From the NCBI GenBank assembly GCA_965220745.1, contig CBDCQT010000012.1, forward strand, positions 448,001 to 512,000: a DNA stretch of 64,000 bases, in the 5' to 3' direction. Shown here one piece after another: positions 3,129 to 52,373 of this stretch (position 1 is the first letter of the stretch; each line of letters begins with the position of its first letter). Under the pieces are notes generated by a model. That model was not told where the DNA came from. It did no database searches and was given only the letters and a program-made list of their open reading frames with translations. The position numbers were made by a program, and so were the translations under genes. Source of the DNA: Alphaproteobacteria bacterium (GTDB taxonomy: Bacteria; Pseudomonadota; Alphaproteobacteria; UBA828).

Positions 3129-3175
3129 CAACGTGGCGGGAGACGATTTCGCAGTCATCGCTGGCCGGGACCACC

Positions 3176-3320: not shown

Positions 3321-3352
3321 TATAGCAGGCTGCTAGAGCATCTTGACTTGGC

Positions 3353-3444
3353 TGTTGTTCGGCGTCGCCGCGTAGCCTCTCGGAATGGAAGCGAACCAAA
3401 CTCCTTGTACGCCGATCGGCATCCAATCTGTGCGTAGAACGACA
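3353..3444 (+). repeat. ~92-bp MITE-like repeat, diverged copy
   Basis: TGTTGTTCGGCG...GAACGACA ends; internal CGCCGATCGGC at nearly the same offset as in 14709-14801. Confidence 0.55.
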
Positions 3445-3615
3445 ATCGGCCGGGGCGGGATGGTGGCGCAGCCGGCGAGTCTGGAACGTTAGACCTTCCG
3501 TCCGCCGAATTGCCTTTATCCGCTCGGTCCCCTGGCTTGTTGAACAGCCGGTCAAGGTCCAAGGGCGACGTCCCGGCCTGTCGGAGGCGAAGCTCGTGTC
3601 TTTGTTGGACACGAC

Positions 3616-3685
3616 CACCTATCCGAACGAGTCTCGGACCTATCCATTTCGCCGACTGACACGCGGGCGGCATGCTCCATAGACT
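3616..3685 (+). promoter_or_regulatory. Putative activator-dependent promoter: two ACCTATCC boxes 21 bp apart, then CTGACA-N18-TAGACT
   Basis: Boxes at 3617 and 3638; 53/58 nt identical inverted copy at 11759-11816; lies upstream of the ABC operon. Confidence 0.65.
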
Positions 3686-3774
3686 TCAGCATCGGGTTGC
3701 TGCCTGGCGGGTTGGCGCGGGCGGGGCGTTGGGGCAACATCGGTGTCCTGAACGCTTGGAGAGCAGACGGATAG

Positions 3775-6733: not shown

Positions 6734-6767
6734 AGCCTTCTTGCCGGGCGCCTGAACGGAGCAGCGC

Positions 6768-7838
6768 GTGTCGGACGTCGAGCTTACGGGTCTGACCAAA
6801 CGCTTCGGCGAGACCCTCGCGGTCGACGACGTCTCGCTCCGGGTCGAGGAGGGGGAGTTCTTCTCCCTCCTCGGCCCGTCCGGCTGCGGCAAGACCACGA
6901 CGCTCCGCATGATCGCGGGCTTCGTTCGCCCGAACGAGGGGCAGGTCTTCATCGGCGGCGAGGACATGACCCTGCTCCCGCCGGAGAAGCGGGGCATCGG
7001 GATCGTCTTCCAGAACTACGCGATCTTTCCGCACATGACGGTGTTCGACAACATCGCCTTCGGCCTGAAGATGCGGAAGGTGCCAAAGCGGGAGATTCGC
7101 GGCCGCGTCGGCAAGGCGCTCGAACAGGTCAATCTCGACGGCTACGAGCGGCGCTACCAGCGCGAGCTTTCCGGCGGCGAGCAGCAGCGCGTGGCGCTCG
7201 CCCGCGTGCTGATCACCGAACCCAAGATCCTCCTCCTAGACGAGCCACTCAGCGCGCTCGACAAGAAGCTCCGGGAGGAGATGAAGTACTGGATCAAGGG
7301 ACTGCAGCAGTCGCTCGCCATCACCACCGTCTACGTTACTCACGACCAGGGCGAGGCGCTCACCATGTCCGATCGCATCGCGGTGATGAACCGCGCGAAG
7401 GTTGTCCAGATCGGCGCGCCCGATACCATCTACGAGCATCCGGCCGACCGCTTCGTCACCGACTTCATCGGCGAGTCCAACATCCTCGAAGCGCGCGTCG
7501 CGGCGGTGAGCGCGGACGAATGTCGCGTCGCCGTGGGCCGAGTCGAGTTCGCAGCCCCGCGGCGCGACGGGATCGAGACCGGCCAGGCGGTGGGCTTCGT
7601 GGTGCGGCCGGAGCGCGTGCTCATCGGCCCTGCCGCCGAGGCCATCGACGGCACCCGGCTTACCGCGACCGTGGTCGACCGCAGCTACCAGGGCGCGATC
7701 ATCCGTTACCGCATGCAACTCGAAGGCCAGGAGATCGTGGCCGAGGTGCCCAACCGGCCGGATCAACCCCACCTCGCTGACGGGGCCGAGGCCGTGATCG
7801 GCTGGACCGTGGCGAGCAGCGAGCTGCTCGTCGACTGA
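6768..7838 (+). CDS. ABC ATP-binding protein, PotA-like with TOBE domain
   Basis: GPSGCGKT, LSGGEQQRVALAR, LLLDEP. Confidence 0.95.
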   Translation: MSDVELTGLTKRFGETLAVDDVSLRVEEGEFFSLLGPSGCGKTTTLRMIAGFVRPNEGQVFIGGEDMTLLPPEKRGIGIVFQNYAIFPHMTVFDNIAFGLKMRKVPKREIRGRVGKALEQVNLDGYERRYQRELSGGEQQRVALARVLITEPKILLLDEPLSALDKKLREEMKYWIKGLQQSLAITTVYVTHDQGEALTMSDRIAVMNRAKVVQIGAPDTIYEHPADRFVTDFIGESNILEARVAAVSADECRVAVGRVEFAAPRRDGIETGQAVGFVVRPERVLIGPAAEAIDGTRLTATVVDRSYQGAIIRYRMQLEGQEIVAEVPNRPDQPHLADGAEAVIGWTVASSELLVD

Positions 7839-7854
7839 CTCCGTAACCGACTGC

Positions 7855-8958
7855 TCAGACCAGCTCTTCGATCGGCGTGTAGACGTCCGCGATCCCGAAA
7901 TACTTGGGGCCGAACACGTCGAGCGCCTCGGGCGTCCGCATCACCGGTGGCACGCTGACGCCCACCACGCGCACCCGCTGGCCGTACTTGAGTCCCTCGG
8001 TGGTGATCGGCTCGGCGTTCTCCTGATCGAGGATGCAGATCAGGTCCGGCACCATGCCGAGCATGCGCTCGCCCTGCTGAGCCACCAGAAACTCGTTCTG
8101 GAAGCGCACTTCGAGCTGCTCGCCCGAGTTCTCGCCAATGCCTTCGAAGAGCACCCGCCCGATGGCCCAGCCGCGCGTGGTCTCGCGCAATAGGTCCACC
8201 ACCTTGCCTTCGAACAGCACCGTGCAGAAGCGCTTGTCGCGGGAGGTCTGGAAGTACTGCTGGAGCCCGGCGAAGGGGTCGCTCTGGGTCTCGCGGGCCT
8301 CGCGGATCGAGCGGCCGATCTCCATGGCGAGCGTGGTGGTGTAGAGGACGCCGGTCTCCTTCGCCTCCTTGCCCGACATGCTGTAGAGCGCGATTTCCGA
8401 CTTGGTGCCCATGCGGGTGCACACCACCCGCGCGAACCACTCGGATTCGAGATTACTGCGGGCGCGCACGATGACCTCGTTGCCGTGCTCGTCGCGCAGC
8501 ACGATGGGGGACGCAGGCACGCCGTAGACGCCGAAGGTGCACATCTGCAGCTCGGGGAAGGCGCGCCCCATGCCGTCGCCGTCCACGACCGGCAGCCCGG
8601 TCATGGCTCCGATCACCATGGGCAGCGTGCCGTTGATGCCGCCGGCCTCGGCGGAGATGAGCGCGGTGGCCGTGCGGCCCTTCTCGCGCTCGATCGAGCG
8701 CAGGCACTCCACCATGGCATGCGCGCTCGGGATCTTCTCGACCATCACGGTGGGCGCGCCCATGTTGGCGACCGAGACGACGAAGTCGTCGTCGTCGAGC
8801 TCCATCGGGTCCATGATGGTGATGTCGGCGCCTTCCTCCAGCTTCTGGCGCAGGATCAGCCCGCCCACGTAGGGATCGCCGCCGCCGCCGGTGCCGAGAA
8901 AGGCGGTGCCGCGCAGAAAATCCGGCAGTAAGTCGAGGTGCATCTTCATCGTTGGCAT
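7855..8958 (-). CDS. DUF917 family protein (thiohydantoin desulfurase-like)
   Basis: GTAFLGTGGGGDP, MGAP, EAGGING, DGDGMGRAFPELQM, QNEFL, PDLI motifs. Confidence 0.88.
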   Translation of the reverse strand: MPTMKMHLDLLPDFLRGTAFLGTGGGGDPYVGGLILRQKLEEGADITIMDPMELDDDDFVVSVANMGAPTVMVEKIPSAHAMVECLRSIEREKGRTATALISAEAGGINGTLPMVIGAMTGLPVVDGDGMGRAFPELQMCTFGVYGVPASPIVLRDEHGNEVIVRARSNLESEWFARVVCTRMGTKSEIALYSMSGKEAKETGVLYTTTLAMEIGRSIREARETQSDPFAGLQQYFQTSRDKRFCTVLFEGKVVDLLRETTRGWAIGRVLFEGIGENSGEQLEVRFQNEFLVAQQGERMLGMVPDLICILDQENAEPITTEGLKYGQRVRVVGVSVPPVMRTPEALDVFGPKYFGIADVYTPIEELV

Positions 8959-8988
8959 TGTTCGCTATCGCTCCTGCTTGGCTGGCGC

Positions 8989-10533
8989 TCAGCCTTCCGC
9001 GAGATCACCCACCGCCTTGACTCGGACCCGGCAGGCGGCGCCCGGCAGGTAGGCGAGGGGGATCTCCTCGACCTCGATGATCTCGATGCTGGCAGGCTCC
9101 GCACCGGCATCCGCCGCCTTGGCCTGTGCCTCGTCCTTAGCCTGGGCGATGGCGTTCTCGCGGCCCTCCTGCTCGTAGGAGAAGACGCGGTCCACCTCGC
9201 CGCCGACCTGGGCGATGGCAGCGCCGATGGCGTTCGCGACCGCCGAGTGCTTGGGCACGCTCAAGGTCGAGACACCGGCCAGATCGCGCCCGATCAGGAT
9301 GCTGCCGCCGCCCACCAGAATCGCGGGCACAGGCTCCGCGCTCGTCTTCATGCGGTCGATCGCGTCCTCCACCATGGTGTGGATGGTATCCAGCGCGCGT
9401 TTCACAGCACCGCCATCGAGCCCGGCGACGGCGTTACGGTCGCCGATATCGGCGAGCCCGGCGGCGACGGCGATATCGGTGGCGGTCAGCGTGTCGCCGC
9501 CGAAGACCAGCGCCTTCTCCGTCAGTTCGAAGCCGACAGAATCCGGGCCGACAGTGACCGCGTCGTCGCCCCGCACCAGGCTGCCGCCGCCGAGCCCGAT
9601 CGCCAGCACGTCGGGCATGCGGAAATTGGTCCGCACCCCGCCGACGTCGACCGCAACCGCAGACTCCCGTGGGAAGCCCCGGGCCAGCACGCCGACATCG
9701 GTGGTAGTGCCGCCGATATCGACCACGACGGCGTTCTCCTTGTCGGAGAGGAAGGCCGCGCCGCGCATGCTGTTGGTTGGGCCCGAGGCGAAGGTCAGCA
9801 CCGGATAGCGCTCGACGTAAGCCGCGCTCATCAGGGTGCCGTCGTTCTGGCTGATGAAGAAGGGCGCATCGATCTTGAGTTCCTTCAACGAGTCGCGGAA
9901 CGCGCCCACCACCTTGGCCGAGAGCGAGACCAGGGCCGCGTTCATCACCGCCGCGTTCTCCCGTTCGATCAGCCCGACCCGGCCGATCTCGTTGGAGAGC
10001 GTGATCTGCGCGCTCGGGTGTTCGGCGCGGATGATCTCGGCGGCGCGGTCCTCCTGCGCGCTGTTGAGCGGCGCGAAGACCGAGGAGACCGCCACCGATT
10101 CCAGCCCCTTGGCGGCGATATCGCGGGCGATATTGGCGATCTCGGCCTCGTCCAGGGGCGAGATTTCGCGCCCGTCCACCTCGTAGCCGCCCTTGGCCAT
10201 GTAGACGTTGCGGCCGATGGTATCCACCAGGTCGCGCGGCCAGTCGATCAGGGGATTGAGGCTCTCGGTGGCCGGCAGCGCGAGGCGCACGATGGCCACC
10301 GGCACCAGGCGTCGTCGCTCGACGATGGCGTTGGTGAACTGGGTGGTGCCGATCATCACACCGGTGACGATCTCCGGCGCGACCTCGGAGCGGGCGAGCA
10401 CGCCCTCGATGGCGGCCACCACGCCCGCGCCCACGTCGGCGGTGGTGGGTGCCTTGATGGACGCGACAACCGTTGCACCGTCCATCAGCACCGCATCGGT
10501 GTTCGTGCCGCCGACATCGACACCAATTCTCAT
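8989..10533 (-). CDS. Hydantoinase/oxoprolinase A-like protein
   Basis: Start MRIGVDVGGTNTDAVL behind AGGAG RBS; SGPTNS, DIGGTTTD, IGLGGGS motifs. Confidence 0.92.
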   Translation of the reverse strand: MRIGVDVGGTNTDAVLMDGATVVASIKAPTTADVGAGVVAAIEGVLARSEVAPEIVTGVMIGTTQFTNAIVERRRLVPVAIVRLALPATESLNPLIDWPRDLVDTIGRNVYMAKGGYEVDGREISPLDEAEIANIARDIAAKGLESVAVSSVFAPLNSAQEDRAAEIIRAEHPSAQITLSNEIGRVGLIERENAAVMNAALVSLSAKVVGAFRDSLKELKIDAPFFISQNDGTLMSAAYVERYPVLTFASGPTNSMRGAAFLSDKENAVVVDIGGTTTDVGVLARGFPRESAVAVDVGGVRTNFRMPDVLAIGLGGGSLVRGDDAVTVGPDSVGFELTEKALVFGGDTLTATDIAVAAGLADIGDRNAVAGLDGGAVKRALDTIHTMVEDAIDRMKTSAEPVPAILVGGGSILIGRDLAGVSTLSVPKHSAVANAIGAAIAQVGGEVDRVFSYEQEGRENAIAQAKDEAQAKAADAGAEPASIEIIEVEEIPLAYLPGAACRVRVKAVGDLAEG

Positions 10534-10697
10534 GCTTTTCTCCTGCGCTTCGTGCCGCCGCATCCTAATCGCAGTGCCATGTGATCGCACCGTCTAACGT
10601 TGCGCTGCCGCACCCGATTGAACGCCGGGCGGCAGAGACGTAGACTCCCCGCCAGGCAGCGTCCGCTGAGCGACGTTCCAAGGGAAGGGCACTGGCC

Positions 10698-11465
10698 ATG
10701 GCAACGGATGTGAGAGTGGTAACACCGATCACGACCTGGGGTTTTCGGGACAAGTCTGAGTTCGCCGCACTGGAGCGGCCGGACCTGACGATCAGTCATA
10801 TCGAGATCGAGACCGGCCCGGCCTCGATCGAATGCGAATACGACGAGGCGCTCGCCGTCCCTGGCACGATCGCGAAGATCATCGAGGCCGAGCGCGACGG
10901 CTGCGACGCGGTCGTGATCGACTGCATGGGTGACCCCGGCATGCTGCCGGGACGCGAGTGTGTCTCGATCCCGGTGATCGGGCCGTGTGAGGCGGCGATG
11001 CACGTGGCGTCGATGCTGGGGCACACCTTCAGCGTGGTTACGGTGCTGAAGCGGCTGCGCCCGCAGTTCGAGCATCAAGCGCAGCTCTATGGCGTGCGCG
11101 AGAAGCTCGCCTCGGTCCGTTCCGTTTCGATCCCGGTTCTCGAGTTGGAGCAGGATCTCGATCGTACCAAGGCGGCGCTTGCGGAGGAGGCGGTTCTGGC
11201 GGTCGAGGAGGACGGCGCGGATGCGATCATCTTCGGCTGCACAGGCATGCTGGGCTGCGCCGAGGCCGTGCGCCGCGGCCTGCTCGCCAGGGGCTACGAC
11301 GTGCCGGTGATCGACCCGGTGCCATGGGCGGTCAAGCTCGCCGCGAGCCTGGTGGACGCCGGGCTCAGCCACAGCAAGATCACCTACGAGCGCCCGCCGG
11401 CGAAGCCCGTGGTCGGCTACGAGATTCCGCCGATGACGAGCCTCACCCGCGACGCCGCCGAGTAG
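10698..11465 (+). CDS. Asp/Glu/hydantoin racemase family protein
   Basis: GPASIE, catalytic IDCMGDPG and FGCTGM, VIDP. Confidence 0.92.
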   Translation: MATDVRVVTPITTWGFRDKSEFAALERPDLTISHIEIETGPASIECEYDEALAVPGTIAKIIEAERDGCDAVVIDCMGDPGMLPGRECVSIPVIGPCEAAMHVASMLGHTFSVVTVLKRLRPQFEHQAQLYGVREKLASVRSVSIPVLELEQDLDRTKAALAEEAVLAVEEDGADAIIFGCTGMLGCAEAVRRGLLARGYDVPVIDPVPWAVKLAASLVDAGLSHSKITYERPPAKPVVGYEIPPMTSLTRDAAE

Positions 11466-11758
11466 GTGTCGCGCCCAACCCGGTGGACTGGCGCGTCGAT
11501 CTCGACGCCTCCTGCCCCGCGACCTCGGCCGTCGGCGTGGGGTGCCCGATCTCGGCCGGCCTGACGCCCCTCCGGCGGATTTTCCCTTTCGGATCGGCGG
11601 CTGCGGATTCGTCGAGGGCATCAAGTTCCCGAACGTCGAATTCATAACCTCCGCCAATCCTGTGGACTTTCAGACCCATTTGTAGTGAACGCGCGACTCG
11701 AGCGCTGATTGGCCTTGTGCGACTAGGTGCTGGAAACCCGTTATTCGACCGTAGGTGG

Positions 11759-11816
11759 ATGCCGGTCGCGTGTCAGTCGGCGAAATGGATAGGTCCGCAA
11801 CTTGTTCGGATAGGTG
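11759..11816 (-). promoter_or_regulatory. Inverted second copy of the ACCTATCC-box promoter
   Basis: Reverse complement matches 3616-3673 at 53/58 nt; CTGACA-N17-TACGGT on the minus strand. Confidence 0.65.
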
Positions 11817-11892
11817 ATTACAGCCGACAAAGACCCGAGCCTCTCACCGACCGGCCAAGCTTTCGTCTCTCGACTTAGGCTGATCGATTTAG

Positions 11893-14688
11893 CTACGGGT
11901 GCGGCACTTCCGGCGGTTTGTCCAGCCCATGCCGCTGAGCCACGGAGACGGCGAGAGCCCGCTTATTCACGCCCAGCTTGGCATAGATATTCTTCAAGTG
12001 AAATTTCACTGTTGGTTCCGAGAGCCCCAAGTGCCGGGCGATGCGCTTGTTCGAGTGACCTTGCGCAAGTTGTTCCATGACTTCCAGTTCACGTGAGCTG
12101 AGAATATGCGCTGCCTCTCCATGTTCCCCAGAGCGCATGTCAGACAATAATCGGGCGACGAATTCCACTTCAACCTCACTCATGTCGCCGATCCCGGTGG
12201 TTCGAACGACTGCCTGCACCAATTGCGCCAGAAATCTACCCTCTTCGGCAAAGGAACCATAAAATCCGCACGAGCTGCCTAGGGCGATAGCTTGCTTGAA
12301 GGGCTTGGCGGCGGCGCGACTGTCTCCGGATTCATGCAGCGCCATGGACTGCAGGATTAATCCCTTTACCCGGAAGCGAACCGCATTTGCTTCCTGGGAC
12401 TTGCGAACCGCCTCGTTCAGTAACTCCACTGCATGGACGGCGTCGCCAAACCGAATGTGGTATCGGGCCAGGGAAAACGCCGCCATATAGAAGCCGCGCC
12501 AACACGCCCCGGCATCTCCTGCATCGGCGTGAGTCAGGCGATCGATATCCTGCAAAGCCAACTCGGCCAGATCGGCCCGTTCCGCGCGGACAAACAGATC
12601 CAGCCGCTTGTAACAAATAAGGTGCTGAAGCCGGTGCATGTTTCGCCGCCTGATCGTCCGCTCCGCTTGATCGAGTATCTCGGCGGCGGCCTCTGGACCA
12701 TTGTCGGCATATGCCACCTCCATGGCCACCGTGTATCCCGGAACATAAAGCTCGCTCCACCCTTCCCTGACCTCGATATCGTGAAGCGAATTGAAAATAC
12801 GCCGGCTGGCGGCTATTGGGTCGCCGCGTTCGAGATGGATTTCCGACAAGAGCACGGAAGCGATGCCCGCGAGCCCCCTGTCAGCGGGAAAATACCGCTC
12901 AGCCAGGTCTAGCGCCGTTGACCTTCGTTTCTGGGCATCGGAGAGAAGACCTTCTTCAAGATCGATAATGCTAATGTTGATATGAATAAAGAACTGGAGA
13001 TATTTGGCATCGAGATCCCGATAGTAGGCCATGGATCTCTCGCCGGACAGTCTGGCATTCTTCAGATTGCCTGCCTGGATCTGCGTGACGCAAAGAATAT
13101 TATGAAGAACTCCTCGAACGAGCGATTCCGATTCTGGTGTCGATCGTGTCAAACTCTCAAAGCGAGCGATATCTTCATCTGAAATCATCCGGTCTTCATA
13201 AATTCGGAGAAGCGCGCCGATCAGCGTGATCTCGTCGGCCAGATCGCGATCGTCGGTTGCGCCCTGGGCGACGACTTCGTCGAAAAGCTTGGCGGCCTCA
13301 ACGATCCGCCCTTCTTTCGCAAGGACGTAGGCCAAACACAACTTGGCGCGCGGACTGACATGAACCGCATTCGTAGGAATATGATCCAGGAGAGATCGAA
13401 GATAACCCACACCCTGTCTTATGCCGACTAGTACGCCGCCAGCGTTTTCGACATATCCTATCGCCCGCGCGTAAGCGTTTCCTGCCTTGGCGTGGTGTAT
13501 AGCGGACTGGAGATCATCGGCAGCGAAGAACCAATCGGCGGCGCGTCGATGCAACGCATCGACATGTTCCCTGCCGAGATAAATCTGCTGTTGCCGCAAG
13601 AACTCCAGAAACAGTTGGTGATGCCTGAACCACCCGTCTTCGGGAGCATCGCTCCTCGACATCAGGACTCCGGCCTTCCAAGTCTCGAGTAATTTCTCCC
13701 ATCCGTCATTTCGCTCTCGAACAGCATCTGCAAGATCGCCGTTCAAACGCTCCAGGTGCGCCGTTTCCAGAAGAAATTGCTGCTGGTCTTCCGAGAGTTG
13801 TTTGAACACGCGTTCATTGAGATAATCGGCCAACTCGGCCCGCGATCCGGACAGGCTGCTGACATGTCGCTCGAAGGGAACGCTGCCATTGTGGGTCAGG
13901 TGTGTCAGTTGAACCGCGACCGGCCACCCTTCAGTCCGCTCAATCAACTGCCTCGAAACCTGCTCGTCCAGCGGCTGATCGAACAGCGCTCCTATGTCCC
14001 CTTCGCCGAATCTAAGGTCGTCGACCGTGATCTCGTGGACTTCACCTTGCAATCTCAATCCTGAGACCGGAATGCCCGACCGCTCTCTAGTTGCGATGAC
14101 GATATGCAAGGTTTGTGGGCTGTTGTGGATAAGGTATTCGAAAAGCTCGAGGCAAGCGCCGGTATCAGCGAAATGCGCGTCGTCTATGATCAGGCATGCC
14201 TCCACACCGCTTTCGCGCAACAGCGTTGTCAACATCGAGAGGCGAGCAAGCGGCTCCGTATCGCCCGAAACGGAAGCGTGAACATCGAGGTCAGCCCGCG
14301 CCGCTTGTTCCAGGAGCGCGATCAACGACGTCGGATCGCAATCGCGGCGTTCAATTTGAACCCAGGCCCAGGCAATACCGGAACGGCCTAACCTCGCGCG
14401 CAGCTGATTCAGTAGGGTCGTCTTGCCATATCCGGCCGGTGCGTCGATCAGCGTCAGACGCCGCCCAAGATTGTCCTGAATGCGGTCGAGGAGCGGTGTC
14501 CGTTCGATCAGTACGACCCTGTCCGGTGAAGCCATCGACCCATGCCCGGCAACTGGTCCGGCTCGAATCTTAGTCCATGGACGGTTTGTCGACCAAGCTG
14601 GCTGATCGGCGGACCACAGCGGAGCAGGACGGCCCGCCTGGCAGGACGATCGTCTCCAGGTCTGGCCGCCTGAATTCCAGGCGGCCAC
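11893..14688 (-). CDS. MalT-like large ATP-binding LuxR (STAND) transcriptional regulator; start uncertain (alternative ATG at 14535)
   Basis: Walker A APAGYGKT, Walker B LIIDDAH, RTEGWP, WFRHHQLF, C-terminal LuxR HTH LSSRELEV...TVKFHLKNIYAKLGV; visibly more AT-rich than flanks. Confidence 0.92.
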   Translation of the reverse strand: MAAWNSGGQTWRRSSCQAGRPAPLWSADQPAWSTNRPWTKIRAGPVAGHGSMASPDRVVLIERTPLLDRIQDNLGRRLTLIDAPAGYGKTTLLNQLRARLGRSGIAWAWVQIERRDCDPTSLIALLEQAARADLDVHASVSGDTEPLARLSMLTTLLRESGVEACLIIDDAHFADTGACLELFEYLIHNSPQTLHIVIATRERSGIPVSGLRLQGEVHEITVDDLRFGEGDIGALFDQPLDEQVSRQLIERTEGWPVAVQLTHLTHNGSVPFERHVSSLSGSRAELADYLNERVFKQLSEDQQQFLLETAHLERLNGDLADAVRERNDGWEKLLETWKAGVLMSRSDAPEDGWFRHHQLFLEFLRQQQIYLGREHVDALHRRAADWFFAADDLQSAIHHAKAGNAYARAIGYVENAGGVLVGIRQGVGYLRSLLDHIPTNAVHVSPRAKLCLAYVLAKEGRIVEAAKLFDEVVAQGATDDRDLADEITLIGALLRIYEDRMISDEDIARFESLTRSTPESESLVRGVLHNILCVTQIQAGNLKNARLSGERSMAYYRDLDAKYLQFFIHINISIIDLEEGLLSDAQKRRSTALDLAERYFPADRGLAGIASVLLSEIHLERGDPIAASRRIFNSLHDIEVREGWSELYVPGYTVAMEVAYADNGPEAAAEILDQAERTIRRRNMHRLQHLICYKRLDLFVRAERADLAELALQDIDRLTHADAGDAGACWRGFYMAAFSLARYHIRFGDAVHAVELLNEAVRKSQEANAVRFRVKGLILQSMALHESGDSRAAAKPFKQAIALGSSCGFYGSFAEEGRFLAQLVQAVVRTTGIGDMSEVEVEFVARLLSDMRSGEHGEAAHILSSRELEVMEQLAQGHSNKRIARHLGLSEPTVKFHLKNIYAKLGVNKRALAVSVAQRHGLDKPPEVPHP

Positions 14689-44584: not shown

Positions 44585-46459
44585 TCACCCGGCCGCGCTG
44601 CGGGGCGCGGCGGCGAGGGCGTCTCGCGCCGAATCCTCTTCGCGCCCGTCGTCGAACTGGAGCGCCGCGAGCCTCGCGTAGAGCCCGCCGCGCGCCATCA
44701 GCGCCCGGTGCGTCCCCTCGGCGACCACGCGGCCCTCGTCCATCACCACGATGCGGTCCGCCTTCTGCACGGTGGCGAGGCGATGCGCGATGACGATGGT
44801 GGTCCGCCCCGCCATCAGCCGCTCCAGCGCCGCCTGCACCGCGCGCTCGCTCTCGGCGTCCAGCGCGCTAGTGGCCTCGTCGAGCAGCAGCACCGCCGGG
44901 TTGCGCAGCACGGCGCGGGCGATCGCGAGCCGCTGCTTCTGCCCGCCCGAGAGCCGGGTGCCCTTCTCGCCGAGGAAGGTATCAAAACCCTCCGGCAGGC
45001 TGTCGAGGAAGGCCGCCGCGCCCGCCGCCTCCGCCGCGGCGCGGACCTCCTCGTCGCTCGCCTCGGGCCGGCCGAAGCGGATGTTCTCCCGCGCGCTCGT
45101 CGCAAACATCACCGCATCCTGCGGTACCAGCGCGAAGGAGCGCCGCACCGCCTCCAGCGAGGCCTCCCGCAGGTCGACCCCGTCGAGCACGACGCGCCCG
45201 TCCTCGGGGTCGTAGAAGCGCAGCAGGAGGTTGAAGACGGTCGACTTGCCCGCGCCCGAGGGACCCACCAGGGCGACCGTCTCGCCCGGCGCAACGGCCA
45301 GCGAGAAGCCCTCCAGCGCCGGCGCGTCCGGCCGAGCGGGGTAGTGGAAGGTGGCGCGGTCCAGCTTCACGGCGCCCTGCTGCGGCTCCAGCAGCGGCTT
45401 CGTCACCGCAGGCGCGGGCGCGAGCGCGGGCTCCTCGTTGAGCAGCTCGGCCAGCCGCTCAGCGGCACCGGCGGCGTGCTGCAGGTCGCCGTAAACCTCG
45501 CTGAGCGAGCCCACCGAGCCCGCGACCACCACGGCGTAGAACATGAAGGCGGTCATCTCGCCGCCGGTCATCTCGCCCTGCAGCACCGTGGTGCCGGCGA
45601 TCCAGAGCACGAGGCCCACGCCGCAGAAGACCAGCAGGATGACGATCGCCGTCAGCGTCGCCCGTGCCTGCACGCGCCGCAGCGCCGCGCGGAACGCCGC
45701 CTCCACGTGGTCGCCGAAGCGCTCGCCGCTCCGCTCCTCCTGGCCGAAGGCCTGCACGGTGCGGATGCCGCCGAGCGCTTCCTCCATGTGCCCGCCGACA
45801 TCGCCCACGCGGTCCTGGGCGAGGCGGGAGAAGCGCCGCACGCGCCGGCCGAGCACGACGATGGGGATCACCACCACGGGCACCATCAGCACCACGAAGC
45901 CGGTGAGCGTCGGGCTCGTCACGATAAGCATGGCACTGGCCCCGAGGAACAGCAGCAGGTTGCGCAGCGCCGACGACGCCTGCTGGCCGATCACGGTCTG
46001 CAGCAGGGTGGTGTCGGTGGTGATGCGCGACAGCAGCTCCCCCACCTTGTTGATCTCGAAGAAGGCCGGGCTCAGCCCCACAAGGCGGCGGAAGACTGCC
46101 CGCCTTATGTCGGCCACCACCCGCTCGCCGAGCCAGGAGACGAGGTAGAAGCGCGCAAACGAGCCGCCCGCCAGCAGCGCCACCATGCCCGCCATGTAGA
46201 TCAGCGCATGGTGGAGCCGCGAGATCTCCTCCGCGCTGAGGCCGTCGTCGATCAGGACCCGGAGCCCCTGGCCCATCGCGAGCACCGCCGCGGCGCTGAC
46301 GCAGAGCGCGAAGACCGCCGCCACGATCACTCCGCGGTAGGGCCGGAGGAAGCGGAACAGGTAGCGGATACGGCGGATCTCGCCACGCGGCGGCAGGGCT
46401 GACGACGCCGGCGAATCGCCGGAGCGCCGCCGCCTCGCTTCCGATCCGAAGATGCTCAC
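44585..46459 (-). CDS. Fused permease/ATPase ABC exporter (MsbA-like)
   Basis: TM domain ([11 protein letters not shown]), [27 protein letters not shown]. Confidence 0.93.
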
Positions 46460-46575
46460 CGCTGCCGCCCCCCGTTCTGGTGGCGGCACGATATCCGAGT
46501 CGCGGCGGAGCCAATAGCCGCTTGCGCCGGGCGCGCCGCGTCTATATGAAAGCCGCGCGACAAGCGGGGCCCGCC

Positions 46576-46800
46576 ATGAAGAAAGACATTCATCCCGATT
46601 ACCACGAGATCACCGTCGTCCGGACCGACGGCAGCACCTTTACCACGCGGTCCACGTGGGGCAAGGCGGGCGACACGCTCACCCTCGATATCGACCCGCT
46701 GTCGCACCCGGTGTGGACAGGTGGGGCCCAGCGCATCGTCGACCGCGGCGGCCAGGTCTCGCGCTTCAACAAGCGCTTCGGCGACTTCGGGCTGAACTAA
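46576..46800 (+). CDS. rpmE: 50S ribosomal protein L31 (Cys-free form)
   Basis: [10 protein letters not shown]...[14 protein letters not shown]...VSRFNKRF. Confidence 0.97.
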
Positions 46801-46863
46801 GTCTCGCACGCGCGAAGCGTGGTGCGCGCGAAACCAAGAGCCGCGCACGCCTAACTTCCCCAA

Positions 46864-46896
46864 CCGTCATGGCCGGACTCGTTCCGGCCAACCATG
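46864..46896 (+). repeat. REP-like palindrome
   Basis: GTCATGGCCGGA-CTCGT-TCCGGCCA; inverted relative at about 50420-50452 and another at about 50955-50988. Confidence 0.6.
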
Positions 46897-46996
46897 TCCT
46901 GCTCGTCTGAGGCCCGTGTTCCGAAGGGTCATGTACCCAAGAGCGGCCTCGTGTCTCGTCGGCCCGGTGGGATTATCCCAAATGTTAATTTTAGGC

Positions 46997-47056
46997 GGCC
47001 TATTCCGGCCCACTCCGGCCCAAAGTGGCCCAAGGTGGCCCAAGGTCGCCCACGCG
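46997..47056 (+). repeat. Six degenerate tandem 10-bp units (GGCCCAnnnn)
   Basis: ggcctattcc ggcccactcc ggcccaaagt ggcccaaggt ggcccaaggt cgcccacgcg. Confidence 0.7.
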
Positions 47057-47119
47057 ACAAAATTAGGGGATTATATACCGACCTTGACATCTGAGCGCAA
47101 TTCCCCGTAGCCTCCTCCC

Positions 47120-47240
47120 TGCAACGTTACGCGGACCCGCTTGTCGGGTCGCCCGCTGAATAGAACAGCCCTTGATCCGGCCGGGGTAGCTCCCCGGCTT
47201 GGCGAATAGGCGGGGCTTCACGCTTCCGTGTGACGTTGCA
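47120..47240 (+). ncRNA. Putative structured RNA / 5' leader (multi-stem)
   Basis: 16-bp closing stem (47120-47135/47225-47240, two G-U pairs) enclosing three hairpins; begins just after TTGACA-N18-TAGCCT. Confidence 0.55.
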
Positions 47241-47293
47241 ACGGCCCGGCGCCAGGCGCCAAGGGGCGCGGCCGGTCCACGGGAGATGGACCT

Positions 47294-48610
47294 ATGCTCA
47301 GAACATCGTTGATCGCCGTAGCGTGCGCTGCGGCCGTGATAGCGCTTGCCGCCTGCGGCGGTGGGGGCGGGGGCAGTGGTGAGCGGCCATCCGTCCACCA
47401 CGATATTGTCGGGGTCGACCAAGGCCTCGAGTCTTTTCGAGGGCTGCCGTCAGCCGGCGCGCGCGGCGGTGTGGCGATCCGCTACGGCACTCGCACTGAT
47501 GGCGTGGGTCGCGACGCCTTGGTCGCCTATCTCACCGAAGCCGGCGCCACGACAGCACGCTGGTACGACGTGCCGCCGGACATTCGGGTGATCGGCCCCT
47601 CGACGGCGCGGGAAAAGCAACTCGTGACCGAGGTCGTCGAGGCGATCAACCTATCGCTGCCGCCTGAGCACCGGATCAAGCTCAGGACGCCCGTGGCAGG
47701 GCTCAGCCTGCGCCACACGGTGAATGCCGCTGGCCGCTACTTCCGGGGGAGAGATCACCGCCCGAACACGATCCATATCGAGTTCCTCGACTGCCACGAT
47801 TACCACGACTGTGGCACCTCCGGCGCCACCGCCTGGGGCAACGGGTCCGACCTTCACGCCTACGTCCAGATGGCACGAGGAACACCCGCCTATGGCCGGG
47901 ATGATTGGGCACGCATCCTTCTGGCGCACGAGCTCCTGCACACCCTGCTTGCGGACGAGCATGTCAGCGAGCGCTTCGACTCGATCAATCTGGGCTCCAA
48001 TGCCATCTACGCGGCCGGGCCAGCCTCTATCCTCAAGCCGATCGACCGTGAAGCGCTCCAGGCGCTCTACGGGCACCTCGAACTGCACGACAGCCCAACG
48101 GCCCTCGGCCCTTGGTCGAGCACCTCGACGCATTTCATCGGTGACGGGCGCCATGCCGACTTCGGCGTTGCGCTGAGAAACGGCTACGCGGAGCCGTGGG
48201 CGCGCGGTGCCCGGCCTTCCTCCACGCTCGCGAACAACCGCGCCCTCTTGGGAACGGTCATCTGGGATGGCGCGCTGGTCGGCTTCTCGGGGCACCAATC
48301 CGTCACGGGCGATGCCTTGATCTCCGTCGACCTGACCGTGCTCGATGCTCCCTTGCCCGAGCTCGACGGCAGTGCCGTCTTCACGGCGCTCGAATACTGG
48401 CATCACCCCGAAGCCGACGATCCGTTGGGCGGCTCGATGTGGGGCGACGGCGATCTCGCCTACACGATCACCGTGGACGGCAACACCTTCCGAGAAACTG
48501 GCGGGGATGATGGTAGACTCACGGGGATCTTCACCGGCCGTTCCCATGAAGGAGCCGCCGGCACCTTGGAGCGGTCCGACCTCATCGCAGCCTTCGGCGC
48601 TTCACGCTGA
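47294..48610 (+). CDS. Surface lipoprotein with metzincin-like Zn-protease domain and TbpB/fHbp-like C-terminal beta-barrel (IS passenger)
   Basis: Lipobox LAAC plus Gly linker; HELLHTLLADEH; IDREALQALYG; ends GIFTGRSHEGAAGTLERSDLIAAFGASR. Confidence 0.75.
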   Translation: MLRTSLIAVACAAAVIALAACGGGGGGSGERPSVHHDIVGVDQGLESFRGLPSAGARGGVAIRYGTRTDGVGRDALVAYLTEAGATTARWYDVPPDIRVIGPSTAREKQLVTEVVEAINLSLPPEHRIKLRTPVAGLSLRHTVNAAGRYFRGRDHRPNTIHIEFLDCHDYHDCGTSGATAWGNGSDLHAYVQMARGTPAYGRDDWARILLAHELLHTLLADEHVSERFDSINLGSNAIYAAGPASILKPIDREALQALYGHLELHDSPTALGPWSSTSTHFIGDGRHADFGVALRNGYAEPWARGARPSSTLANNRALLGTVIWDGALVGFSGHQSVTGDALISVDLTVLDAPLPELDGSAVFTALEYWHHPEADDPLGGSMWGDGDLAYTITVDGNTFRETGGDDGRLTGIFTGRSHEGAAGTLERSDLIAAFGASR

Positions 48611-48627
48611 CCATCGGGAAAGAGATC

Positions 48628-48783
48628 ATGGCGAAACAGACCGGCGAGACAGACTTGCTCACCTTGGCGATGCGCCGCGCGCACGCGGAGGCGGCAGAAA
48701 GGCGGGAGCCGGAACTCCCGCCCGATACCGAAAATGCTTCAGCCGCGGATGTTGCTGACGACCAGAATGTTGCCGTCGAGTAG
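48628..48783 (+). CDS. Possible 51-aa small protein (IS passenger)
   Basis: ATG 17 nt after lipoprotein stop with purine-rich RBS; MAKQTGETDLLTLAMRRAHAEAAERREPELPP... Confidence 0.3.
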   Translation: MAKQTGETDLLTLAMRRAHAEAAERREPELPPDTENASAADVADDQNVAVE

Positions 48784-48957
48784 CTTGGTCTCGTTGATCA
48801 AACCGCCCAATAGTCCCCGGTGGACCGCGCCAATGACGGTGGTCTCGACCGCCTCGTGACTGGCGCCGGGGAGCTGCGCGGCAAGGTCTTCGACGGTGTT
48901 GAACTGGCGGCCTCGGCAAGCCGCAAGGACGCGCTGTAGCAGCGGTGTCTGGGACAC
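48739..48957 (-). CDS. 72-aa protein, possible winged helix-turn-helix (IS passenger)
   Basis: GTG start with AAGGAG RBS; TVEDLAAQLPGASHEAVETTVIGAVHRGLL resembles a wHTH. Confidence 0.5.
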   Translation of the reverse strand: MSQTPLLQRVLAACRGRQFNTVEDLAAQLPGASHEAVETTVIGAVHRGLLGGLINETKLLDGNILVVSNIRG

Positions 48958-49169
48958 AGAAGGTCTCCTTGATCTGGAGACCGCCTAACGCCATGCTATG
49001 GAGATTGCGTTTCAGCATGTGCCCGCAGCGGTCTCGTGAGCCATGTGCGGGTGCCGGGAGTTCCCCTGCCAGGGGGTAGGCCCGACCGTCGAGCATCATC
49101 TTAGCCGATGGTGCTCGATGTGTCTTCAGGGTAGTGGCCGCAACTTGTCGACCGTCAAGATGTAGGGGG

Positions 49170-50153
49170 TCAGGCGCTGCGTGCGCCGCTTGACAGGCCG
49201 TTGTCGGCGATCAGCGCGCTGTACGCCAGATGCTTGCCCACCATGTGCGTGACGGCGGTTTCCATCTGCTCGATGGTGTCGGCCTCGCGCACGTTGTGCC
49301 GGCCCGAGAACTCGTTGATGTACCGCTCAAGATGCTTCTGGCTCATCTTGTGGTAGGTACCGTGGTAGCCGCGCTTCAGCATCGCCCAGAAGCTCTCCAT
49401 GCCGTTGCAGTGTGCCTGTCCCCGGACATATTCGCCGGCGCTGTGGTTCACGGCCTCATGGTCGAACCATGCCGCCAGTGCGTTGTACGCCTTCGACTCG
49501 TCGGTGTAGACCGTGGCGCCGGGCTTGGTCCGCTCCGCGACGAAGCCCGCGACATGGGGAGTGTCGGTACCGGCGACGTGGCGAGCGGCGACCTTGTTGC
49601 TCTCGCGATCCTTGGTCCCAACGACTGCGGCCTTGCCGACCGCTCCCCGGCCCGTCAGCTTCACCCGCTTGCTCTTGGGCATGTTCTTCCGCCTGCCGCC
49701 GATATAGACCTCATCGGCCTCCACGGGCCCGGAAAACGGCGCCGCACCGTTGTCGTCCCACGCTTCCCGCAGGCGATGCAGCATGAACCAGGCCGTCTTC
49801 TGGGTCACCTTCAGGTCGCGATGCAGCTTCATGCTGCTCACACCCTTCAGGTTGGTGACGTAGAGGTAGACCGCGAACACCCACTTGCGCAGCGGCAGGC
49901 GGGAGCTTTGCAGCATGGAGCCGGTGCGGACGGAGAAGTAGGACCGGCACGACTTGCACCAGTAGGGCATCGGCTTCGCGTTCGGCACTTCCTTCGTCTC
50001 GGTCGATCCGCAATGGCCGCAGTGGCGCTCGCCGTCCGGCCAGCGCGTATCCTCAAACCACTTCACTGCCGAGGCTTCGTCGGGGAACATCTCGGTCAGT
50101 TCGATGATCGAAATGCCTTCGCGGTGGGCTTTTCCAGGTGCTTTGCGGGTCAT
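49170..50153 (-). CDS. IS1595 family transposase
   Basis: Zn ribbon CGHC...CKSC, TQKTAWFMLHRLR, EADEVYIGG, YTDE, NGMESFW, YINEF. Confidence 0.95.
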   Translation of the reverse strand: MTRKAPGKAHREGISIIELTEMFPDEASAVKWFEDTRWPDGERHCGHCGSTETKEVPNAKPMPYWCKSCRSYFSVRTGSMLQSSRLPLRKWVFAVYLYVTNLKGVSSMKLHRDLKVTQKTAWFMLHRLREAWDDNGAAPFSGPVEADEVYIGGRRKNMPKSKRVKLTGRGAVGKAAVVGTKDRESNKVAARHVAGTDTPHVAGFVAERTKPGATVYTDESKAYNALAAWFDHEAVNHSAGEYVRGQAHCNGMESFWAMLKRGYHGTYHKMSQKHLERYINEFSGRHNVREADTIEQMETAVTHMVGKHLAYSALIADNGLSSGARSA

Positions 50154-50178
50154 TTCTCGTCTCCCCCTTACACCTTGG

Positions 50179-50207
50179 AATATAGGCACTTACCCCTCGA
50201 TTGTCAA
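50179..50207 (-). promoter_or_regulatory. Sigma70-type transposase promoter with -35 inside the IR
   Basis: TTGACA-17 nt-TATATT, then GGGGAG RBS and ATG at 50153. Confidence 0.75.
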
Positions 50208-50494
50208 GGTCGGTATATAATCCCCCAAAATTATCGCAACCACGGAAGCAGAGGCCCGCCCGCCCATCGATCTTGCTTGCCGTGACCCGCTCGCTCTCGC
50301 ACTGCGTCGCGCGGATACGCGCGCGGGAAAATAATCGAACCATCTCGCGATCCTGACGCAGTCACCGCGCCCTGTGCACCGCACCATGGTCCGGGGAGTC
50401 GGGAGGGGAGGAGTCCCACCATGTCTTGCCCGGACCAAGTCCGGCACGACGGCATGTGACAGCGATGGAATGGAGAGAGCGCCCCGGCTCTTCC

Positions 50495-50743
50495 CTAAAT
50501 GCAGTCAAAGTGGAAATGTTTGATGGTGCAGGCCTCGTCCTTGCATTGGACCTTGGTGGGCTGCGCGACCTTGCCGTGAACTGCGCATCCCCTCTCGGCT
50601 GCGCTCCACACCCTTTGCTCTTGGGTCAAGTAACCCGCCTTTATGACGATGTTGCCGCTGTCGAGGTGTTCGACGACCGACGCGAACTGAGCGCAACCGG
50701 CAACGGCCAAGGCGACGATCCCGACAACCAGCAGGCGTCTCAT
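50495..50743 (-). CDS. Small Cys-containing lipoprotein, unknown function
   Basis: GGGAGGG RBS; MRRLLVVGIVALAVAGC lipobox; four further Cys. Confidence 0.7.
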   Translation of the reverse strand: MRRLLVVGIVALAVAGCAQFASVVEHLDSGNIVIKAGYLTQEQRVWSAAERGCAVHGKVAQPTKVQCKDEACTIKHFHFDCI

Positions 50744-51018
50744 CGTTCCCTCCCTGCGTTGATCGCGCGCGCCTCGGACTTGCCGCCAAGGGTCGCAGAC
50801 GATGCGCGGCGCGTCAGGCTGGCCTCATGCTGCACCGCTCGCGCCGCTTACCACCATTATAGGGCTGTCCCTGGCCTCTCGTGTCCCGTTTTGAAGGGTC
50901 GCCGGACGCCGGATCGGCGTGCGCCCGCTCCACCAGTTACTCCCCCACACCGAGATGCCCGGACTTGCCCGGACTTGTTCCGGGTATCCGGGCGTCTCTT
51001 TCGACCAGTCCGACCGTG

Positions 51019-51110
51019 CGTGGGTGGGCACGTGGGTTGCGCGCCGGTCCGCGCGGTAAGTTATTGAAATGGCGTGATACGACGAGGTCGAATTCGCACG
51101 CCAAACAACA
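51019..51110. repeat. ~92-bp MITE-like repeat, inverted copy of 14709-14801
   Basis: 47/54 nt match over 51027-51080, plus shared CACGCCRAACAACA end; other terminus degenerate. Confidence 0.75.
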
Positions 51111-51119
51111 ATCGGGGAC

Positions 51120-52373
51120 TTACACGGCGGCCCAGTGGGAACCTTCGATCCCGCCGACCCGCCGGCCGGACTTGATGTGGATGCGCCGGCCGGGGAGGCG
51201 CCGCAGGACATCGACCAGGTTGGTCGCCTCGAACACCACCAGGTCGGCGGGGGAGCCTGCGGCAACCTCGGGCACAGGCGCGCCGATGATCTTCGCCGCC
51301 CGCGTGGTCACCATCTCGAAGCCCTCGCGGACCTCCTCGTCGAGCCTCATGCCGGCGCTGTGCACGGTCATGTAGGCGAGCTCCACCGGGTCCATCCGGT
51401 TGAAGCGATACCAGATGTCGTACATGTTGTCGGCGCCGGCGGCGACGTTGATGCCGGCGTCGAGCATCTCCTTCACCCGTGACGAGCCCCGGTTCTGGGG
51501 CGTCCGGCCCTCACCGCCCAGCATCTGGAGATTGGCGATCGGCAGCACGGTGACCGCCATGTCGGCGTCCAGCACCTTGTCGATCACCCGCGTCGCCTCC
51601 TCGTCGGGATAGACCGCGAGCGCGTTGCAGTGGCTGGCGACGACCCGGCCCTGCATGCCGTGGGCAACGGTGGCCTCGGCCAGCATCTCCAGCGTCTTGA
51701 GCTCGGCCCGGTCCATGTAGTCGGCGTGCATCTCCACGCCCACGTCGAACTCGGCGGCGAGGTCGAGCACCGTCTCGACGTGGGTGCGCTGGTCTTCCAC
51801 CGAAGCCTCGACTTCCGGCAGGCCGCCGACCGCTGCAGCGCCCATGCCGAGCGCCTCGCGCAGCAGCGCCGGCGCCTCCGGGTCCGCGACGATCCCTTCC
51901 TGGGGGAAGGCCACGAGGGTGACGTCGACGACGCCGGCGAAGCGATCGCGCGCGCGCATCACGCCTTCGAAGGAGACCAGCTTGGTTGCGAAGTCCACGT
52001 CGATCTGGGCGTGCAGGCGGCCGATGCCGTGGGCCGCGGCGAGCCTGAGGGCGGTGCTGGCGCGCTCCTCCACGTCGGCGAGGGTGAAATGGATCTTGGC
52101 CTCGCGGGCGCGGTCCAAGGCCTCCTGCGGCCCGCGCGCACCGAGCAGGTCGCGGCTCAGCACCTTGTCGATGTGGAAGTGGGGATCGACGAAGGAGGGC
52201 GTGACCAGCCCGCCGCGCGCGTCGACACGCGCCGCCGCGTGGCCGTCGAGGGTAGGCGCGACCGCCTCGATACGGCCGTCGCGGATGCCGATGGAGACCG
52301 GTACCGCATCATCGAGACGCACTGCGTCGTGAATGAGAAGGTCCCACTCGGGGCCCGGAGCCGCGTCCGTCAT
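51120..52373 (-). CDS. Amidohydrolase, cytosine/creatinine deaminase-like
   Basis: DPHFHIDK, AFPQEG, MHAD, ASHCNAL, GADNMYD. Confidence 0.88.
   Translation of the reverse strand: MTDAAPGPEWDLLIHDAVRLDDAVPVSIGIRDGRIEAVAPTLDGHAAARVDARGGLVTPSFVDPHFHIDKVLSRDLLGARGPQEALDRAREAKIHFTLADVEERASTALRLAAAHGIGRLHAQIDVDFATKLVSFEGVMRARDRFAGVVDVTLVAFPQEGIVADPEAPALLREALGMGAAAVGGLPEVEASVEDQRTHVETVLDLAAEFDVGVEMHADYMDRAELKTLEMLAEATVAHGMQGRVVASHCNALAVYPDEEATRVIDKVLDADMAVTVLPIANLQMLGGEGRTPQNRGSSRVKEMLDAGINVAAGADNMYDIWYRFNRMDPVELAYMTVHSAGMRLDEEVREGFEMVTTRAAKIIGAPVPEVAAGSPADLVVFEATNLVDVLRRLPGRRIHIKSGRRVGGIEGSHWAAV

Follow-up and report, generated by a model that had tools for sequence, protein, structure and literature searches.

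A leader RNA and a gene for a zincin-like lipoprotein as cargo of an IS1595-family element

Why does a gene for a predicted surface protein lie between the ends of an insertion sequence (IS), and do the two travel together? The question is raised by a 64,000-nt stretch of an alphaproteobacterial contig (CBDCQT010000012.1, positions 448,001 to 512,000, assembly GCA_965220745.1; hereafter the window, whose numbering we use for all positions given without a locus name), in which a 3160-bp unit bounded by inverted repeats (IRs) holds a transposase gene, a gene for a 438-aa lipoprotein, two small open reading frames (ORFs) and a structured leader RNA. A first-pass annotation, made from the letters of this stretch, had described the unit as an intact and recently inserted IS1595-family element that spreads a surface metalloprotease and contains two structured leaders. 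We conclude that the 3160 bp probably transpose together as an IS1595-family "transporter IS" with a leader-lipoprotein cassette, and put the probability of this reading at roughly 0.8.

The boundaries of the unit can be read directly. The left IR, GGGGATTATATACCGACCTTGACA (47066-47089, plus strand, ending TTGACA), has its exact reverse complement at 50202-50225 (right IR, minus strand; 24 of 24 positions), and the same 8 bp, CAAAATTA, abut both IRs as a target-site duplication (TSD; 47058-47065 and 50226-50233). When up to three mismatches are allowed, the 24-bp IR occurs twice in the 64 kb, whereas none of 100 dinucleotide shuffles contained it (mean 0.00, maximum 0), and at the same tolerance no third IR was found between the lipoprotein and transposase genes. 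The ends begin GGGG and, together with the 8-bp TSD, have the form expected of the IS1595 family; that both IRs and TSD are perfect fits a recent insertion, as had been proposed. We count the composition of the element as foreign: its G+C content is 64.6% compared with 67.6% in the flanks, and G+C at third codon positions is 0.79 in the lipoprotein gene and 0.84 in the transposase gene, compared with 0.83-0.94 in neighboring genes, most of which lie above the element's two large genes. The four ORFs sit where the first-pass annotation had placed them, at 47294-48610 and 48628-48783 on the plus strand and at 48739-48957 and 49170-50189 on the minus strand.

The family assignment of the element comes from its transposase. 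The ORF product matches DDE_Tnp_IS1595 (PF12762) at 2.7e-40 over profile positions 3-153 of 153 and the NCBIfam model transpos_IS1595 (NF033547) at 9.1e-58, with 195.6 bits against a cut-off of 75. The N-terminal zinc ribbon Zn_ribbon_IS1595 (PF12760), a feature of every IS1595 group but IS1016, scores E 2.2e-05 and 24.8 bits, just below the curated 25.4; its CxxC...CxxC pattern can be seen in the translation, and the domain is annotated in most close relatives. A GTG at 50189 would give a protein of 339 aa, and the ATG at 50153 (49170-50153, minus strand) gives one of 327 aa; the closest relatives, up to 94% identical, have 325-327 aa, so that ATG 50153, which is preceded by the Shine-Dalgarno (SD) sequence GGGGGAG, is the likely start and the transposase is full length. 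A sigma-70-like promoter (50179-50207, minus strand) has its -35 element TTGACA in the right IR, a 17-nt spacer and the -10 element TATATT; with 11 of 12 consensus matches it is the sole such site in 46800-50500, where shuffles give a mean of 0.4. The whole element had no blastn match among 72,556 plasmids, and a tblastn search of the same plasmids with the transposase gave 449 records, all below 60% identity, none with an IS name and the nearest at 43%. The first-pass annotation was thus right on this count: the element is an intact IS1595-family element with passenger genes.

Does such a unit move as a whole? Scanning one genome per species with a 31-sequence alignment of the lipoprotein family yielded 78 loci (designated by L numbers), all in metagenome-assembled genomes. 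An IS1595 transposase match above 150 bits lies within the 8-kb flanks of 17 of them, and at 12 the lipoprotein gene is enclosed by IS1595-type IRs (of the form GGGRNTTAT...TTGAC), representing eight element types; the TSD of these 12 is 8/8 in nine, 7/8 in two and absent in one. One alphaproteobacterial genome contains five copies (L010-L013 and L029) identical over 2936 bp, each comprising the lipoprotein gene and a convergent transposase gene in the same arrangement as in the window, and each with a TSD of its own (AATTCTTT, AAAAATTA, AAGATTTT, TATTTAGT and AAAACAAT), all different and AT-rich. Sequence identity among the five, together with a separate 8-bp TSD at every one, directly shows that a related unit of transposase and lipoprotein genes transposes in one piece. 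The window element itself is visible as one copy, and its single TSD spans the whole unit; with one copy visible in 64 kb, its current activity is something that we infer.

What lies between IR pairs in related genomes, the comparison that the first-pass annotation had singled out, is varied: in addition to the lipoprotein gene at 12 of the 78 loci, other cargo occurs as well, as in L061, L069 and L009. The IS1595 unit of L061 (9395-12203; 2809 bp, 25-bp perfect ends, 8/8 TSD AACCGGAA) carries a restriction-modification pair consisting of a NotI-like endonuclease (PF12183, 1e-39) and a D12 N6-adenine methyltransferase (PF02086, 8.9e-12), and here, as in L006, the lipoprotein gene lies just outside a unit that carries other cargo. 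The L069 element (6757-11148; 4392 bp, TSD TAAAATTA) encloses leader, lipoprotein gene, 51-aa gene and transposase gene together with an XRE-type helix-turn-helix gene, a DUF1902 protein gene and a HicA toxin gene, and the L009 element has a nested ISAzo13 transposase between its ends. In L056 (7594-9707) a 2114-bp IR-bounded unit with an 8/8 TSD contains the lipoprotein gene without a transposase. The cargo combination that the first-pass annotation did not recognize is therefore not confined to the site in the window: it belongs to a series of IS1595 units in which genes of this lipoprotein family recur as cargo. Decayed or reduced forms were also seen. In L031 an IS1595 copy with a frameshifted transposase (6164-7983) lies beside or within a broken lipoprotein gene, and about 5 kb further on there is a solitary end (13374-13403; 93% over 30 bases to the window IR) with no adjoining transposase; in L052 a 260-bp miniature element (9197-9456) with IS1595-type ends, resembling a miniature inverted-repeat transposable element and with no TSD seen, directly follows a lipoprotein gene.

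Have vehicle and cargo been together since a single founding event? The transposases of the eight element types are 42-66% identical to one another, and across 27 pairs of elements transposase identity and lipoprotein identity are uncorrelated (Spearman -0.07). We therefore rejected co-divergence of transposase and cargo; the association formed, or was reshuffled, on several occasions and not on a single one. A quick maximum-likelihood tree was made of 58 lipoprotein sequences; the four duplicate loci were left out, as were 17 in which the best single alignment spanned fewer than 330 residues or contained a stop. On it the phylum label changes 14 times, where the minimum is 7 and shuffled labels give a mean of 15.6, and several strongly supported sister pairs differ in phylum label. 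This pattern would fit frequent transfer. Counting against transfer between phyla is the source of the labels, as cross-phylum placement comes from metagenome bins and mobile DNA is easily mis-binned.

Upstream of the lipoprotein gene, the cargo includes a conserved structured RNA (47110-47253, plus strand), identified by blastn conservation, by a covariance model and by covariation. A blastn comparison of the element with the loci finds 72-82% identity to the segment 47109-47258, over 110-155 nt, in many of them, and no DNA-level conservation of the adjoining coding DNA for the N-terminus of the lipoprotein. The sequence from 47090 to 47293 folds somewhat better than shuffled versions (z = -2.19). 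The structure comprises the helices P1 (47121-47134/47226-47239), P2 (47135-47139/47145-47149), P3 (47152-47156/47210-47214), P3b (47168-47170/47201-47203) and P4 (47180-47186/47192-47198), and directly 5' of P1, as in most copies, runs a CU-rich stretch (47110-47120). Among 20 copies defined by sequence anchors, the two strands of P1 differ wholly in sequence and keep their complementarity. MAFFT followed by RNAalifold missed this helix because MAFFT misaligned the variable strands, and we therefore built a covariance model, R1, on the window sequence, with a secondary structure of all of these helices drawn by hand. In a search space of 1,090,691 bases (the window plus 74 loci, four duplicate loci being left out), R1 found 34 matches at E ≤ 1, 29 of them at E < 0.01, under several phylum labels; the leader in the window, its single match there, scores 190 bits.

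The case for a folded RNA rests on covariation. Standard pairs fill 93.6% of cells in the leader alignment compared with 66.6% in shuffles, compensatory changes on both sides occur in 32 of 34 pairs, 245 cells carry double changes compared with 66.5 in shuffles, and sliding the partners by 1-3 columns reduces pairing to 32-46%. These counts have a point against them, as they come from an alignment fitted to the model structure, which favors that structure, and for this reason we added an alignment-free test of P1. Strands from the same copy form duplexes with a mean energy of -25.2 kcal/mol, compared with -11.0 ± 4.0 for strands taken from different copies, and a strand's own partner ranks first in 14 of the 20 copies and second in four, which come from two near-identical copy pairs. 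Covariance searches with Rfam 15 at E ≤ 1 gave no relevant family in 46000-51500 of the window and no family in L014, L026, L045, L046 and L049, which together hold seven leader copies.

What does the leader accompany? Downstream of the 29 stronger R1 matches lies a member of the lipoprotein family in 19 cases, another small lipoprotein in two and other or unclear genes in eight; among these eight are Sel1-repeat and RTX-like products that have signal peptides. A lipobox-bearing ORF follows at a short, fairly constant distance in 21 of the 29, and the start codon of the 19 family genes is mostly 26-46 nt past the motif. The leader occurs within IS1595 units (the window, L069, L049, L008, L032, L009 and L006) and also in loci in which neither IS ends nor a transposase were found, such as L002, L003, L004, L024, L046 and L047. 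The IS-borne copies L010 and L056 lack it, which tells against the leader as a fixed part of the mobile unit, so that it is not needed for mobility; from its presence inside and outside IS units and its absence from these two, we conclude that the leader belongs to the gene and not to the transposon.

Some further features of the leader deserve mention. Two partners are open to the segment 47143-47151, namely 47135-47139 (P2) and 47242-47250, and a switch between these pairings is possible; the second helix, at 85.5% paired compared with 83.1% in shuffles, hardly rises above chance and shows a few compensatory changes (G-C to A-U, in five sequences). A hairpin GCUG/CAGC (47155-47158/47166-47169) has some compensatory changes and was left out of R1 because it overlaps P3 by two bases. 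In L006 (1742-4266) and L027 (7004-7600) the gene behind the leader encodes another, smaller lipoprotein (127-146 aa) that Pfam does not recognize, and in L006 leader and small lipoprotein are the IS1595 cargo, with the metalloprotease-like lipoprotein 1.7 kb outside. L026 (969-1340) has two leaders in tandem; after the first comes a stretch similar to an IS1595 end (TATCCGCTTGACTT), which gives the impression that a unit of leader and lipoprotein gene inserted immediately downstream of an existing leader.

The protein behind the leader (47294-48610, plus strand; 438 aa) begins with MLRTSLIAVACAAAVIALAAC followed by GGGGGG, which on inspection reads as a signal peptide, a lipobox LAAC with Cys21 and a glycine run; the pattern LAACGGGGG is present in most aligned relatives, and lipid anchoring is well supported by these sequence features. 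Its SD sequence, GGGAGA (47281-47286, plus strand), sits 7 nt upstream of the ATG, within the loop of a short hairpin, and both SD and hairpin recur in L069. Homologues number 432 at E ≤ 0.001 among 8000 scored candidates, and the sole name they bear in their sources is "hypothetical protein". Across 31 aligned sequences H212, E213 and H216 (H212-E213-x-x-H216) are invariant and H223 is at least 90% conserved, within a family consensus HExxHALG..HV..FDSIM. The strict metzincin motif is HExxHxxGxxH, with the third histidine at +10, followed by a Met-turn. PF00413 (Peptidase_M10) matches 14 of the 31 relatives at E ≤ 1, the best at 1.3e-06.

How far can a protease be read from this? Several points weigh against it. 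The window protein reads HELLHTLLADEH at the motif, with Leu in place of Gly and Asn in place of Met (SIN rather than SIM), and its third histidine is at +11 instead of +10, so that it departs from the strict metzincin zinc site and Met-turn; searched against Pfam and NCBIfam, it matched no model. A fold assignment has to be taken from an ESM Atlas homologue, P0008, which is 54% identical to the window protein over its full length and whose model is mediocre (predicted template-modeling (TM) score 0.56). Residues 283-445 of P0008 have a feature score of 0.94 and a TM score of 0.72-0.80 (normalized by query) to TbpB_B_D/FHBP_C clusters (PF01298/PF08794). For its N-terminal half the best structural match is DUF2927 (TM 0.74), and the feature neighbors are M10, M57 and reprolysin clusters at 0.75-0.78, which we treat as leads only. 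No sequence-level Pfam match to TbpB_B_D was found in the window protein or its relatives, and none in the PDB either; the family profile, searched against PDB sequences, reached no E value below 0.26, and the one thematically fitting match, MJ1213 (E 0.48), aligns over the HExxH. We suggest that the window lipoprotein resembles the zincins, but do not place it in M10; its predicted architecture is a metzincin-like half at the N-terminus followed by a C-terminal barrel of the eight-stranded TbpB/fHbp type, which is seen through P0008 only. We read the protein as a lipid-anchored zinc peptidase, probably at the cell surface; both the "surface" and the "protease" of the first-pass annotation remain predictions.

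Two small genes complete the coding content. The 51-aa ORF (48628-48783, plus strand), which starts 17 nt after the lipoprotein stop, had been entered as merely possible; comparison argues for a genuine gene that accompanies this branch of the lipoprotein family. Its family has 22 proteins at E ≤ 0.01, including the window's own, the other 21 being 47-61 aa long, with DLLTLAMRRAHA invariant in all of them and an acidic, proline-rich tail, and the L069 counterpart, of equal length and in the same place, differs at the three codon positions by 13/11/23, with a third-position bias. Several of the homologues lie on contigs equal in length to contigs that bear lipoprotein homologues. The 72-aa ORF (48739-48957, minus strand) lies downstream of the transposase gene on the same strand and, by the same kind of evidence, is a real small gene of an unnamed family of about 70 aa: 14 representatives, most of about that length, were found at E ≤ 0.001 among 1.84 billion proteins, tblastn finds relatives in L002 and L009, and Pfam has no match. 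Between the transposase stop and this gene, a 7-bp hairpin (48962-48982, minus strand) resembles a terminator for the transposase transcript and holds the SD sequence AAGGAG of the 72-aa ORF in its 3' arm, and the rest of the spacer (48983-49169, minus strand) is without conservation. The minus strand of 48958-49169 folds with z = -2.58, which is weak on its own, and blastn of 48742-49179 against the 78 loci gave no match; with no counterpart in the loci, it does not qualify in our view as a conserved structured element. Of the two leaders first proposed, the one before the lipoprotein gene is thus upheld by R1, by covariation and by the P1 test, and the one between transposase and 72-aa gene is not.

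How might the parts work together? We propose that the transposase is transcribed from the promoter whose -35 element lies in the right IR and that it binds both 24-bp ends and integrates the entire unit, preferably at AT-rich sites, where an 8-bp TSD results; in the window, it would have inserted between rpmE and a small lipoprotein gene. The cassette would then consist of the leader RNA of about 145 nt, the two-domain lipid-anchored protein and, directly behind it, the gene for the 51-aa acidic-tailed protein, with the 72-aa gene following the transposase gene on the opposite strand. The most likely role of the leader is to regulate how the lipoprotein mRNA is translated or how stable it is, perhaps in response to a signal that it would sense, and P1 may bring the CU-rich 5' stretch, acting as an anti-SD sequence, toward the SD sequence 3' of the motif. 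A difficulty for the latter step is that a -35/-10 pair based on the left IR would start the RNA at about 47120, excluding the CU-rich stretch. On a larger scale, related IS1595 elements would have acquired the leader-lipoprotein module on several occasions and carried it among distantly related bacteria. We consider it possible, though as a tentative extension that we would not yet favor, that the leader is a new class of riboswitch-like riboregulator in a host-independent cassette of RNA, surface lipoprotein and 51-aa protein, which IS1595 units would capture time and again and shuttle across phyla that share one community.

Could the arrangement be read differently? The simplest alternative is a plain IS1595 of about 1.1 kb whose insertion happened to be next to a lipoprotein gene already in place, the left IR being a stray solo end and the 3160-bp unit illusory. 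Such neighborhoods exist, since in L061 the lipoprotein gene ends at 9266, outside the IS at 9395-12203, in L006 it starts at 5960, outside the IS at 1742-4266, and solo ends and the 260-bp miniature element in L052 (9197-9456) occur among the loci; yet in the window the 8-bp TSD flanks the entire 3160 bp, the ends are identical at 24 of 24 positions with no third IR (at up to three mismatches) between the two genes, and eight related element types share the layout, one of them copied five times whole. We regard this alternative as very improbable. Slightly more room must be given to the idea that the block upstream of the lipoprotein gene acts as DNA, whether as promoter or operator, as a subterminal transposase site or as an attC-like site, which its long invariant stretches, as in protein-binding DNA, would suit; P1, a hairpin with imperfect pairing, variable sequence and semi-conserved ends, also bears a loose likeness to integron attC sites. 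Base pairing in the variable parts is however maintained by changes on both sides (the 245 cells against 66.5), among them G-U pairs, which are meaningful only in RNA, and the energies of own and cross P1 partners agree with a folded RNA. The block is always on the coding strand, at a short and fairly constant distance before SD and start codon, it is found in many loci without detected IS ends or transposase (the six named above among them), and its interior is conserved in sequence, unlike that of attC. A function as DNA is improbable on this evidence.

A weightier challenge concerns the protein. The HExxH half might be a metal- or ligand-binding module and the whole protein a receptor or binding protein like TbpB, fHbp and HpuA, rather than a protease: the class of its C-terminal barrel belongs to binding proteins, the window protein does not conform to the strict metzincin motif and is recognized by no peptidase model, and DUF2927, to which the N-terminal half of P0008 is structurally closest, is of unknown function. 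Against this, an HExxH that is invariant in 31 of 31 sequences, with the further histidine in at least 90%, is what selection for catalysis would be expected to leave, 14 of the 31 relatives match Peptidase_M10, and the feature neighbors of P0008 point toward peptidases, as leads. We think a binding protein unlikely, if a serious contender, and retain the zinc peptidase as the probable function.

The site of insertion adds some observations. On the left the element is preceded by rpmE (46480-46800; Pfam Ribosomal_L31, 1.9e-25), on the other side lies an 82-aa Cys-rich lipoprotein-like ORF (50495-50743, minus strand) on the opposite strand to rpmE, and the wider chromosomal neighborhood includes genes for aconitase, accA, aroB, an ABC exporter, creatinase and hydantoinase. 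The 82-aa ORF, which gave no match in a Pfam search, resembles an 82-aa ORF of L032 (9491-9739; 31% over 83 aa, E 2.5e-08) that sits within the L032 element, between lipoprotein and transposase genes; 9209-9535 of L009 was noted alongside these two. Directly beside the IS, in the window (46986-47056) and, in opposite orientation, in L069 (6682-6756), is a unit of about 70 bp that starts TAATTTTAGGCGGCC and continues with tandem 10-bp repeats resembling GGCCCAAGGT; the IS adjoins its TAAAATTA end in L069 and its other end in the window, and its 15-base start is absent from the rest of the 78 loci. The unit may be a preferred target, or a repeat common to two related genomes. Just to its left, GGGATTATCCCAAATG (46966-46982), a small palindrome and terminator-like site, resembles the first bases of IS1595-type ends (GGGGATTAT...) and may be a remnant of an older insertion or a product of chance.

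Why does this element matter? It presents an IS as a vehicle for an envelope protein gene, with vehicle and cargo together copied five times whole in one genome. It offers a domain-level reading (lipobox, zincin-like half, TbpB-type barrel) for more than 400 family members named "hypothetical protein". Its leader motif, which stands before genes of exported proteins under several phylum labels, with strong covariation and no Rfam entry, is a candidate for a new cis-regulator. Finally, elements of the same IS1595 group bear, as further cargo, a restriction-modification pair (NotI-like) in one case and a toxin-antitoxin pair (HicA) in another, and thus seem to be general carriers of small cargo in related genomes.

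How does the element compare with systems already described? Its end, GGGGATTAT, appears to fit the ISfinder consensus of the ISNwi1 subgroup, which also has longer, passenger-bearing members among its entries. The IS1595 family is characterized by an 8-bp TSD and a single transposase gene whose product has a zinc finger and a DDE domain (PMC8101967), and the term "transporter IS" (tIS) was coined for IS1595-family ISs with passenger genes (Siguier, Gagnevin & Chandler 2009, as cited in PMC3129680, PMC11891212 and PMC8101967); a passenger named as an example is a transcription regulator, in ISNha5 (PMC11891212). The window element shares with the tISs a transposase with DDE_Tnp_IS1595, and a probable zinc ribbon, encoded by a single gene, the 8-bp TSD and IRs starting with GG, and between its IRs lie the lipoprotein, 51-aa and 72-aa genes, which are unrelated to transposition. 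Unlike that of ISNha5, its cargo is a leader RNA with a lipoprotein and a 51-aa protein, and the cargo family recurs in eight other element types. Mobile insertion cassettes and non-autonomous IS derivatives, both mentioned in PMC3129680, have a likeness in L056, which is IR-bounded and transposase-less, carries only the lipoprotein gene and comes from a genome other than that of the window; the window element differs from them in being autonomous.

The cargo protein has likenesses of its own. Slam-dependent TbpB-like surface lipoproteins comprise TbpB, LbpB, HpuA and fHbp, with Slam present in Proteobacteria, according to Hooda et al. (2017, PMC5449769). As in that account, the window protein has a lipobox, a flexible Gly-rich linker and a variable N-terminal domain before the barrel, and the match of the C-terminal half to TbpB_B_D/FHBP_C clusters, made on the homologue P0008, would link it to TbpB and fHbp. 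It differs from the proteins described there in a zincin-like N-terminal half in place of the handle, and its family also occurs under phylum labels outside Proteobacteria; no Slam (DUF560) gene is present among the 23 window ORFs scanned, from 20 to 63 kb. With the matrixins (M10) it shares the HExxH and a further histidine, and most relatives also have Gly three residues after the second histidine and then "SIM", whereas the window protein differs from M10 in the position of that histidine, in the Gly and Met replacements noted above and in matching no model. The leader is like the cis-regulatory leaders and riboswitches of Rfam in its location in the 5' untranslated region, its multi-helix core, its invariant junction nucleotides and its covarying stems, and unlike them it matches no Rfam 15 family at E ≤ 1.

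In conclusion, ISs with passenger genes are known, and the window element is a member of this known kind. Neither the cargo nor elements of this sort turned up in literature searches, and within the limits of text searches, ISfinder aside, three things appear to be new: a recurring lipoprotein cargo with predicted zincin half and TbpB-type barrel and its 51-aa companion, the repeated link of this cargo to diverse IS1595 transposases under several phylum labels, and the leader RNA motif that precedes it.

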